A DNA stretch of 47,754 bases from a virus (lineage: Duplodnaviria; Heunggongvirae; Uroviricota; Caudoviricetes), in the IMG/VR virus record IMGVR_UViG_2778261224_000004. One strand, given 5' to 3'. This document shows positions 41,836-42,441 of this stretch, in pieces (position 1 is the first letter of the stretch; the number at the start of each line of letters is the position of its first letter). The notes under the pieces were generated by a model, which was given only the letters and a program-made list of their open reading frames with translations, searched no databases and was not told the DNA's origin. Made by a program: the position numbers and the translations under genes.

Positions 41836-41868
41836 CTACAAAGGGGCTACGGCCCCTTTAAGACACAA

Positions 41869-41882
41869 CCCCCCCTCCCCCC
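41869..41882. repeat. Poly-C tract CCCCCCCTCCCCCC in a non-coding gap
   Basis: Homopolymeric run directly read from sequence. Confidence 0.8.
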
Positions 41883-42371
41883 ATACAGGGTGCCCTTTAC
41901 CGGAGTTCCGGCCCCTTCTCAAAAGCATCAAAAAAAGCTCGAGATCGAGTACCGGAACTCATGCCACCAGATAGCTCCACATCGTTTCCAATGCTTCGCC
42001 GCCGTGTGCGCCCTGTGGCCCACAATCATGCCATTGGTCGTCTGATATACCTTCTTCTGCTCATAGAGCACAGGCGAGTTGTCGCACTCCTGCCTTTCTC
42101 AGACTCGACTTAGTTTAGATCGCTGTTCCTGGCTTGCGTCAGCACACTTTCCCCTTGTACGCATACCCGCGCGCCACTTCGCCCAAAAACACCGAACCCA
42201 ACGAAGTGGCAAAGACAACGACGCGAGCGTGAGTCTGAAATGGGCACCAGTAAAAAAGGGGTTGCAGGCGCAAAAAGATTTGATTATCTTTAGACGCAAG
42301 AAAGCCGCCCCAATCAAGAGGTGTCTTTTTAAATCCAGCCTACCAAGCAAGATTTAAATTTCAGACTGAAA

Positions 42372-42400
42372 ACCGCCCGGCAAGGCGGTTTTTGTCTTTC
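42372..42400. terminator. Bidirectional hairpin terminator
   Basis: ACCGCC-CGGCAA-GGCGGT stem followed by TTTTTGTCTTTC on plus strand; A run upstream gives TTTT on the minus strand. Confidence 0.6.
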
Positions 42401-42441
42401 TGGCGCTTACATTACACCACCATAAAACGATCCGTAAAGGA

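Follow-up and report, generated by a model that had tools for sequence, protein, structure and literature searches.

The 47,754-nucleotide (nt) stretch of viral DNA considered here (IMG/VR record IMGVR_UViG_2778261224_000004, hereafter the window) contains a gap between positions 41836 and 42441, bordered on the left by an antirepressor gene (ant) and on the right by a gene for a helix-turn-helix (HTH) protein. This gap is likely to be an unannotated, strongly diverged and functional RNA-primed origin of the ColE1 type, which would serve as a second origin beside the IncFII RepA encoded on the same molecule. Descent of the element from the ColE1 superfamily is, in our estimation, very probable. 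Phage-plasmids of approximately 47-49 kb that carry it are found in E. coli, in Salmonella, and among phages isolated on Yersinia pestis, and the 580-bp segment concerned is unannotated. If our interpretation is correct, an RNA-primed origin explains why this segment is the best-conserved DNA of its region. No published description of a ColE1-like origin in these phage-plasmids was found in the literature searched. Among natural phages, origins of the ColE1 type seem to be uncommon; matches to the ColE1 origin occur in 11 of 50,697 phage records (one being Escherichia virus TH38), and most of the 11 look like cloning vectors or small plasmid-like records.

Resemblance of the gap to the ColE1 origin

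ColE1 itself (NC_001371) was used as the reference, with RNA I located by Rfam at 645-749 on the minus strand (73.8 bits) and the origin placed at coordinate 1197, which is the RNA II start at 642 plus 555 nt. The ColE1 primer is approximately 550 nt in length (PMC5043065). When both strands of the whole window were compared with an nhmmer profile that combined ColE1 with eight diverse replicons of its type (which share 75-86% identity with ColE1), the best match ran from 42451 to 42366 on the minus strand (E = 1.2e-4), spanning the predicted promoter and 5′ hairpin. The reciprocal comparison, with a profile made from the gap family, matched two regions of ColE1-type plasmids in the correct order, namely the promoter with the 5′ end (E = 0.004) and the region proximal to the origin (E = 0.018). 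Elsewhere in the window, the second-best match to the ColE1 profile is at 40100-40138 on the minus strand (E = 0.012; GAAACAAAAAAACCGCCC..GGACGGTTCTTTCG). Located just upstream of isrK, this sequence forms a terminator-like hairpin similar to the 5′ hairpin of RNA II and is probably only a generic terminator.

Alignments that span greater lengths of the element lead in the same direction. Global alignment of the gap to four ColE1-family RNA II regions gave z-scores of 4.8-8.0, which exceed those of all 308 control segments of the window for each of the four comparators, and the opposite strand of the gap yielded a background score. Local alignment of the origin-proximal portion to ColE1 (...TTTTTGTGATGCTCGTCAGGGGGGCGGAGCC...) produced a score of 35.5, compared to 19.2 ± 3.0 for shuffled sequences. 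A score of this size was reached by one in 1000 dinucleotide shuffles and by none of 1260 real control segments.

The shared landmarks lie at positions that match those of ColE1 to within about 10 nt. The promoter region reads GATCgTTTT..gTGTAATgT in the element and GATCcTTTT..cGCGTAATcT in ColE1, and the leader, which is 13 nt in both, adjoins a first hairpin of similar sequence (AAAAACCGCC..GGCGGTTTT here and AAAAACCACC..GGTGGTTT in ColE1). Farther along, an upstream G-run (CAAGGGGAAAGTG) is invariant and falls at -257 to -260 relative to the aligned origin, and its ColE1 counterpart (ACGGGGGGTTCGTG) is at -264 to -269. The GGGG within this run is unpaired in the consensus structure of the RNA (columns 285-297). 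A GGAAACG box is present in the element and in ColE1. Near the origin, a long hairpin has the loop UUUUUUUGAUGCU (41936-41924) where ColE1 has UUUUUGUGAUGCU, and its 3′ arm is AAGGGGCCGGAAC where ColE1 has GGGGGGCGGAGCC. The sequence at the origin is GGUAAAGGGC (41901-41892) in the element and GGAAAAACGCC in ColE1. In both, then, the loop carries the motif UUUUU(U/G)UGAUGCU, the arm that comes next holds a G-run, and GG(U/A)AAA lies beyond it. The aligned origin point is at approximately 41896, and the GGGG of the 3′ arm (41915-41912) is thus at -16 to -19.

For ColE1, Masukata and Tomizawa reportedly found in 1990 that a persistent RNA-DNA hybrid is promoted by G-rich stretches in two places, near -265 and near -20. 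The element carries a GGGG run at each of the two corresponding places, where both could act in the same manner. Other hallmarks of a ColE1-type replicon, namely a preprimer, an antisense RNA, and sequence homology, are likewise found here, with the transcription of the RNAs predicted.

Such likeness to ColE1 might be coincidental if the element were instead a structured noncoding RNA without any role in replication, for example a 3′ untranslated region (UTR) or small RNA (sRNA) of the HTH operon, or a riboregulator of the choice between lysis and lysogeny. This explanation can draw on the support for a minus-strand RNA structure described below, on the HTH gene that always precedes and adjoins the element in the E. 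coli and Salmonella lineages, and on the fact that the individually significant profile match covers just the promoter and hairpin. However, the similarity is collinear, includes the middle as well as both ends, and scores above every real-sequence control, and the landmarks are placed as in ColE1 to about 10 nt. Moreover, the element is absent downstream of the more distant HTH homologues of Serratia and Providencia among GTDB genomes, and therefore it is not a UTR tied to the HTH gene. We regard a coincidental resemblance as rather improbable.

A predicted structured minus-strand RNA and its candidate antisense partner

Consensus folding with RNAalifold of the alignment in the minus sense yields 167 base pairs, a covariation term of -5.8, and standard pairs in 99.6% of the cells (features are listed in Table 1). 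Double-sided changes have occurred in seven pairs, versus 0-2 in controls whose 3′ partners were slid, and 33 further pair types are seen, versus 6-11 in these controls. The consensus fold of the plus strand is weaker (126 pairs; covariation term, -1.5). When the same helices are examined at variable pairs, 97.8% are paired on the minus strand as opposed to 62.5% when read on the plus strand. Many of the changes convert G-U to G-C or A-U and are neutral on the minus strand alone, which indicates that the structure has been preserved on that strand only. Several such G-U-compatible changes occur in the internal hairpin that shows the clearest covariation. Fold energy provides no test of the strand, since both strands fold better than shuffled sequences (z = -3.3 and -3.7).

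The putative promoter for this RNA begins 4 nt past the stop codon of the HTH gene, and its -10 element can be read either as TGTAAT with a 16-nt spacer or as TAATGT with an 18-nt spacer. On the opposite strand, a putative promoter for an RNA I-like transcript matches the consensus weakly (3/6 and 4/6) and has two spacer substitutions between clades. The hexamers of both putative promoters are invariant, and the spacers vary between clades. The predicted antisense RNA is complementary to approximately nt +4 to +106 of the RNA II-like transcript and forms three stem-loops in every variant. Its stems are maintained by compensatory changes, all three loops differ between clades, and the least conserved 40-nt bin of the gap (42341-42380, 73%) covers the middle loop. 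Loops that determine incompatibility specificity would be expected to vary in this way while the stems are retained.

A reading of this DNA made from the sequence alone had placed a bidirectional terminator at the right end of the gap. A G+C hairpin is present there (42369-42394), and the label is fair because the hairpin is accompanied by a T-run on the plus strand and by TTTTCAG on the minus strand; a terminator scan also matches 42367-42394 on the plus strand. A more fitting interpretation is that one structure serves both to terminate the RNA I-like transcript and as the first 5′ stem-loop of the RNA II-like transcript.

These parts suggest a course of events that parallels ColE1 replication. 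A sigma-70 promoter at approximately 42438-42409 on the minus strand would start an RNA II-like primer of 510-540 nt, a transcript predicted from the structure and homology given above. The first 105 nt or so of the primer would fold into three stem-loops, to which the RNA I-like RNA of about 100 nt, judging from its anatomy, would pair by loop-loop contacts, thereby setting copy number and incompatibility. The 3′ portion of a primer that is not intercepted would stay hybridized to the template near 41860-41900. Contributors to this hybrid may include the GGGG approximately 260 nt upstream, the GGGG of the origin-proximal hairpin and, above all, a G6AG7 tract at the end of the element. In ColE1, the primer no longer leaves the template at the origin, and the persistent hybrid is trimmed by RNase H for use by DNA polymerase I (PMC5043065). 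By analogy, RNase H would trim the hybrid formed by the element, and DNA polymerase I would extend it leftward, toward decreasing coordinates.

At the junction with ant, the hairpin noted in the sequence-only reading is indeed present (AAAGGGGCTACGGCCCCTTT). According to a consensus scan it is terminator-like on the minus strand, and it would thus keep the primer RNA from continuing into ant. This hairpin is absent or replaced in copies of the element that have other left neighbors. In those copies whose left neighbor is a minus-strand gene, that gene would be transcribed if the primer-like RNA were extended by read-through.

Some additional complementarity exists within the gap. A 10-nt perfect complement (42232-42241 with 42358-42367) relates the spacer after the first stem-loop to a site about 125 nt downstream, and an alternative pairing of this downstream site (42086-42106 with 42231-42251) is 21 nt in length and 76% complementary. 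The sequences GUCUGA/UCAGAC occur twice in each orientation. An alpha/beta/gamma-type switch like that of ColE1 RNA II was considered and set aside: a comparable 6-mer pattern appears in 21.6% of shuffles, and so this type of pairing is kept merely as a lead.

Table 1. Positions of the predicted elements of the gap and of the neighboring genes and RNAs in the window
Feature	Position	Strand	Details
Putative RNA II-like primer promoter	42409-42438	-	-35 TTTACG at 42438-42433; -10 region TGTAATGT at 42416-42409
RNA II-like structured primer transcript (predicted)	41861-42404	-	Predicted start ~42401-42404; conserved body ends ~41861
Putative RNA I-like promoter	42262-42290	+	TTGCAG at 42262-42267; 17-nt spacer; TATCTT at 42285-42290
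RNA I-like antisense RNA (predicted), ~100 nt	42297-42397	+	Stem-loops 42300-42329, 42330-42356, 42363-42397
First 5′ stem-loop of RNA II-like transcript (-), same as terminator stem-loop of RNA I-like transcript (+)	42363-42397	-/+	
Internal hairpin with clearest covariation (helix 10)	42173-42210	-	5 of 13 pairs changed on both sides and still paired
Invariant 47-nt block	42122-42168	-	Holds GGGG at 42156-42153
Origin-proximal long hairpin (helix 19)	41903-41960	-	20 pairs, 100% paired
Predicted RNA-to-DNA transition zone (origin)	41860-41901	-	Placed by alignment to ColE1; exact point inferred
C7TC6 tract of template strand (G6AG7 in primer RNA and displaced strand)	41869-41882	-	GGGGGGAGGGGGGG-UUGUG in RNA sense
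Hairpin at ant junction	41840-41859		Terminator-like on minus, not plus, strand; outside conserved element
HTH gene	42442-42714	-	Borders right end of gap
ant (ORF6N and Rha antirepressor), 393 amino acids	40654-41835	+	
icd-like open reading frame, 63 amino acids		+	Overlaps start of the ORF6N/Rha antirepressor gene
C4 antisense RNA	40324-40412	+	Rfam, 77.8 bits
isrK	40227-40299	+	Rfam, 65.8 bits

Conservation, coding potential and the G-rich tract

Of 5426 complete E. coli genomes, 72 (approximately 1.3%) contain the segment from 41861 to 42440 at an identity of at least 98%, among them that of ATCC 25922, a strain used for quality control, in whose plasmid CP009073 positions of about 17020-17650 correspond to 41830-42460 of the window. 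Identity amounts to 99% for three Yersinia phages, and Salmonella plasmids and related viral contigs share the segment at 89%. Compared with a Salmonella Concord plasmid, the nucleotide identity of the segment is 88.9%, versus 70.7% for the HTH gene, 67.4% for a gene of 126 amino acids, 79.7% for higA, and 77.0% for higB, which makes the gap the most constrained DNA of its neighborhood. The HTH protein is 69-70% identical between the E. coli and Salmonella lineages (42442-42714 on the minus strand compared with 3580-3852 of L003). To the left, a sharp recombination junction lies at about 41857-41861, approximately 12 nt from the poly-C tract, and to the right of it all copies are collinear. 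At least four left neighbors are found, among them the ant terminator hairpin, an extra minus-strand gene of 61-62 amino acids, a minus-strand gene of 214 amino acids, and a Rha-family gene. A left end that stays constant despite such varied neighbors indicates that the element is a module with a defined left boundary.

Searches of viral contigs uncovered no lineages beyond those already known to carry the element. The short motif AAGGGGTTGCAGGCG gave mostly unrelated matches in these contigs, and the many matches to the poly-C motif, which came from viral and metagenome contigs, had no relation to the element.

The sequence-only reading had called the gap noncoding, and this view holds. The largest open reading frame (ORF) between 41836 and 42441 encodes 92 amino acids, no ORF there has a Pfam match at E ≤ 10, and PGAP places no feature in the gap in any of the 72 E. 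coli records. No Rfam family is found in the gap at gathering thresholds; at E ≤ 10, there are just weak, terminator-driven matches to Phe_leader and RNAI. Iterons, tandem repeats, and direct repeats of note are also absent from the gap.

Less can be said for the accompanying proposal that the gap holds a decayed parB-like gene and a homopolymer switch. The minus-strand frame said to recall the ParB/Spo0J N-terminal box does exist, as an ORF starting with GTG at 41928-42071 that remains open to about 42103 (approximately 58 codons) and whose peptide includes ..SPVLYEQKKVYQTTNGMIVGHRAHTAAKHWK.. and ..SPVLYEQKKVYQ.., and genes for ParB/Srx-domain proteins reside elsewhere in the plasmid. However, this frame has no Pfam match at E ≤ 10. 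In a tblastn search with its 56 amino acids against 72,556 plasmids (E ≤ 1), no partition gene appeared, and every match was to this locus in the same set of 62 phage-plasmids. When the 152 open frames of the window that are at least 80 amino acids long, the three ParB/Srx-domain proteins included, were compared with the gap by tblastn, noise alone was returned. The coding signature is missing as well. Between E. coli and Salmonella the protein identity of the frame (78.6%) is lower than the DNA identity (approximately 86%), its 21 substitutions are spread over codon positions 1, 2, and 3 as 8, 6, and 7, and a 1-nt indel at 41937 shifts the frame in Salmonella. A parB/Spo0J remnant is not supported, in view of this lack of homology, protein identity below DNA identity, absence of codon periodicity, and frameshift.

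The poly-C tract is located exactly as reported, with CCCCCCCTCCCCCC at 41869-41882, and by simple arithmetic a specified 14-mer is expected to occur approximately 4e-4 times in 2 × 47.7 kb. The suggestion that it might be a hypermutable switch is contradicted by its constancy. Of the 22 copies read, 15 have the form C7TC6 and these include all lineages (E. coli, Yersinia phage, and Salmonella at 89% identity), so the length is maintained between lineages that differ at 11% of their bases, the opposite of what a contingency locus should show. In three copies (L009, L088, and L094), C8TC6 reflects an A-to-C base change with the tract in register and not a change in length. The other exceptions are C8TC6 in L092, C6TC6 in L090, C7TC5 in L091, and a C6TC6 run in L093. 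Two assemblies of ATCC 25922 disagree, one with C8TC6 (L088) and the other with C7TC5 (L091, a record that is 85 bp shorter overall), and in strain 405 one of three assemblies (L092) has C8TC6. The few records that deviate by a single C thus include discordant assemblies of one strain, and such variants are indistinguishable from homopolymer sequencing errors. Since the tract also lies outside ORFs, promoter spacers, and promoter hexamer pairs, a phase-variable contingency tract is not supported. Overall, the sequence-only reading is partly supported, in that its noncoding and two-way terminator interpretations stand and its parB and switch interpretations fail; a parB remnant combined with a switch has hardly any credibility left.

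The tract is most likely a conserved structural part of the origin, not a switch or a dead gene. On the primer RNA and the displaced strand it reads G6AG7 and lies 14-27 nt past the ColE1-aligned origin point, and conservation ends just beyond it. An rG:dC run situated exactly at the hybrid region of the primer would stabilize a persistent RNA-DNA hybrid. A G-tract of human mitochondrial DNA, described below, provides the analogy by which we propose that G6AG7 may anchor an R-loop or a hybrid G-quadruplex.

Several observations must be weighed against a functional ColE1-type origin. Its activity is derived entirely from sequence, and an intact IncFII RepA means that a second origin is not required for maintenance. 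There is no blastn similarity of the gap to ColE1 plasmids, and the nhmmer match is significant for the 5′ 90 nt or so only, a stretch that includes a generic hairpin. On the plus strand, 42322-42395 matches the Rfam RNAI model (RF00106) at 18.1 bits (E = 1.3) with the model's middle stem-loop deleted, and with a gathering threshold of 47 bits the RNA is not filed as a member of that family. A consensus scan of 41500-42900 detected no sigma-70-like site, and both promoters were picked by eye. The covariation comes from essentially two clades, with the consensus structure fitted to the same sequences, and more distant relatives able to test the model were not found. Finally, the G6AG7 tract comes after, not before, the aligned origin point, and its role is without precedent within the ColE1 family.

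An alternative is a ColE1-type descendant that no longer fires, left behind, for example, by an old cointegration with a small plasmid. In this case, the RNA pair would be under selection as a device for incompatibility with, or exclusion of, ColE1-type plasmids, or as a regulator of neighboring genes. Homology and anatomy would be the same as for an active origin, RepA is intact, and every copy examined, including that of pCREC-544_3, retains repA, so that the element is nowhere seen to suffice alone. Selection on the RNA pair is nevertheless difficult to reconcile with conservation of the entire 540 nt or so, which includes the -260 block, the origin-proximal hairpin, and the G-tract, all of which matter for primer or hybrid formation only, and with an RNA I region that is the least conserved part. 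We therefore judge a silent descendant to be unlikely and favor an origin that functions.

Host replicon and comparison with known systems

A family of E. coli plasmids of approximately 47-49 kb, of which NZ_LR130559.1 is an example, is almost identical to the window, with which the Yersinia phages vB_YpM_39, 41, and 44 share 98.5% identity across the region. The plasmid family encodes myovirus-type structural proteins, a lysis cassette, an XRE repressor, ParA, a HigB/HigA pair, and repA, whose product is an intact RepA of the IncFII type (Pfam PF02387, E = 1.2e-43). Directly upstream of the gap is an immI cassette of the P1/P7 type (40227-41835, plus strand) composed of isrK, C4 RNA, the icd-like ORF, and ant. 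The window is a myovirus-like phage-plasmid of about 47 kb, given that phage structural and lysis genes, plasmid genes, and an immI cassette are joined in it. MOB-suite assigned no replicon type to these plasmids, and no dedicated replication protein besides RepA was noticed in the phage annotation, although no systematic check was made. The 32-kb deletion derivative pCREC-544_3 retains both repA and the gap, and CP035831 is an incomplete contig; consequently, neither reveals which origin suffices. Plus-strand GC skew is negative in every 2-kb window over 1-47754, even in the block of plus-strand genes at 37-42 kb, and thus the origin is not located by skew. This uniform skew is compatible with unidirectional replication toward decreasing coordinates from either candidate origin and does not discriminate between them.

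Other features of the window were observed in passing. A full-length match to ryfA (Rfam, 142 bits, E = 1.3e-36) is located at 39559-39855 on the minus strand, between the par genes and immI, and is without annotation in the RefSeq record; ryfA-type loci are small-toxin/sRNA loci known from chromosomes. A tRNA with the anticodon CAT (28377-28452, minus strand) is called tRNA-Met by ARAGORN and tRNA-Ile by PGAP on a near-identical record, and the latter assignment implies lysidine modification. The three proteins with ParB/Srx N-terminal domains are encoded at 21.8-25.7 kb (L002 21821-25700), beside the terminase genes. They are distinct from the partition pair of ParA and a small protein (38.4-39.4 kb) and are unrelated to the gap. 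Lastly, a perfect 12+3+12 palindrome (CGCAAAGTGTCA-AAA-TGACACTTTGCG) at 42743-42769, between the gene of 126 amino acids and the HTH gene, overlaps a TTGACA sequence and is likely the operator of the HTH protein. No second copy of this 27-bp palindrome exists elsewhere in the window, the gap included.

Phage P1 offers one comparison, with its plasmid replicon (oriR/RepA) and, next to immI, a lytic replicon (oriL/RepL). The phage-plasmid has an immI cassette of the P1/P7 type, and its second candidate origin is directly downstream of ant, where kilA-repL/oriL is situated in P1. The lytic origin of P1 needs RepL, whereas no repL-like gene is present here and the candidate origin would be RNA-primed. 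Use of this origin in the lytic cycle, as in P1, is speculation. A more elaborate version, in which IncFII RepA provides low-copy maintenance and the ColE1-like origin provides lytic amplification with its primer captured by G6AG7, is a tentative and somewhat doubtful proposal. Under such a two-mode arrangement, the ColE1-like origin might be released by the balance of RNA I to RNA II or by transcription of the HTH or immI operon, for example. If the gap is an origin, it supplies the phage with a candidate lytic origin, and incompatibility or interference with other RNA-regulated replicons is predicted, as is copy-number behavior beyond that due to RepA.

The nearest precedent for RNA-based replication of a prophage is found in mycobacteriophages that lack repA (PMC7157519). 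Cluster A mycobacteriophages such as RedRock and Alma resemble the phage-plasmids in that their prophages are extrachromosomal and replicate by means of a noncoding RNA region rather than a Rep protein. They differ in being actinobacterial, in lacking repA and any sequence relation to the element, and in having 1-2 copies, whereas the element coexists with RepA and is ColE1-like.

The ColE1/pMB1-type replicon is the closest match in anatomy. Both lack an initiator gene and have a promoter (a putative one in the element) approximately 510-550 nt upstream of the origin, a near-identical 5′ leader and first hairpin, three 5′ stem-loops under an antisense RNA of about 100 nt, and an intrinsic terminator near primer nt +2 to +8. 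They also share a single-stranded G-run at about -260 and an origin-proximal hairpin with its loop motif, G-run 3′ arm, and GG(U/A)AAA. In contrast to these plasmids, the element has no blastn-level similarity to them, scores far below the RNAI threshold, leaves the ColE1 middle stem-loop unaligned, and is without a rom/rop gene. It resides in a 47-kb phage-plasmid beside IncFII RepA and not on a small mobilizable plasmid, and its additional G6AG7 tract is missing from the nine ColE1-type sequences examined.

For this tract, the best likeness is CSB II (conserved sequence block II) of human mitochondrial DNA. The CSB II core (GGGGGAGGGGGGGTTTG) stops transcription and forms a replication primer and R-loop, and it acts likewise with T7 RNA polymerase (PMC4176368, PMC3488243). 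On the nontemplate or RNA strand, the element has G6AG7-TTGTG and CSB II has G5AG7-TTTG, and each motif occupies the 3′ end of a transcript (a predicted one in the element) that is believed to act as a primer of DNA synthesis. The two systems are unrelated, with different polymerases and lineages, and therefore the resemblance is convergent or coincidental; we take it to be convergent. What is new is a probable, strongly diverged ColE1-type origin that bears a CSB II-like tract and coexists with IncFII RepA in a phage-plasmid, and what is known is the ColE1 mechanism. A near-copy of CSB II at a primer end would provide a simple bacterial system in which to test how G-tract R-loops turn transcripts into primers. 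Should replication prove to occur in the two modes considered above, the element would be a bacterial counterpart of mitochondrial priming by R-loop and G-quadruplex, and one that is genetically tractable in E. coli.

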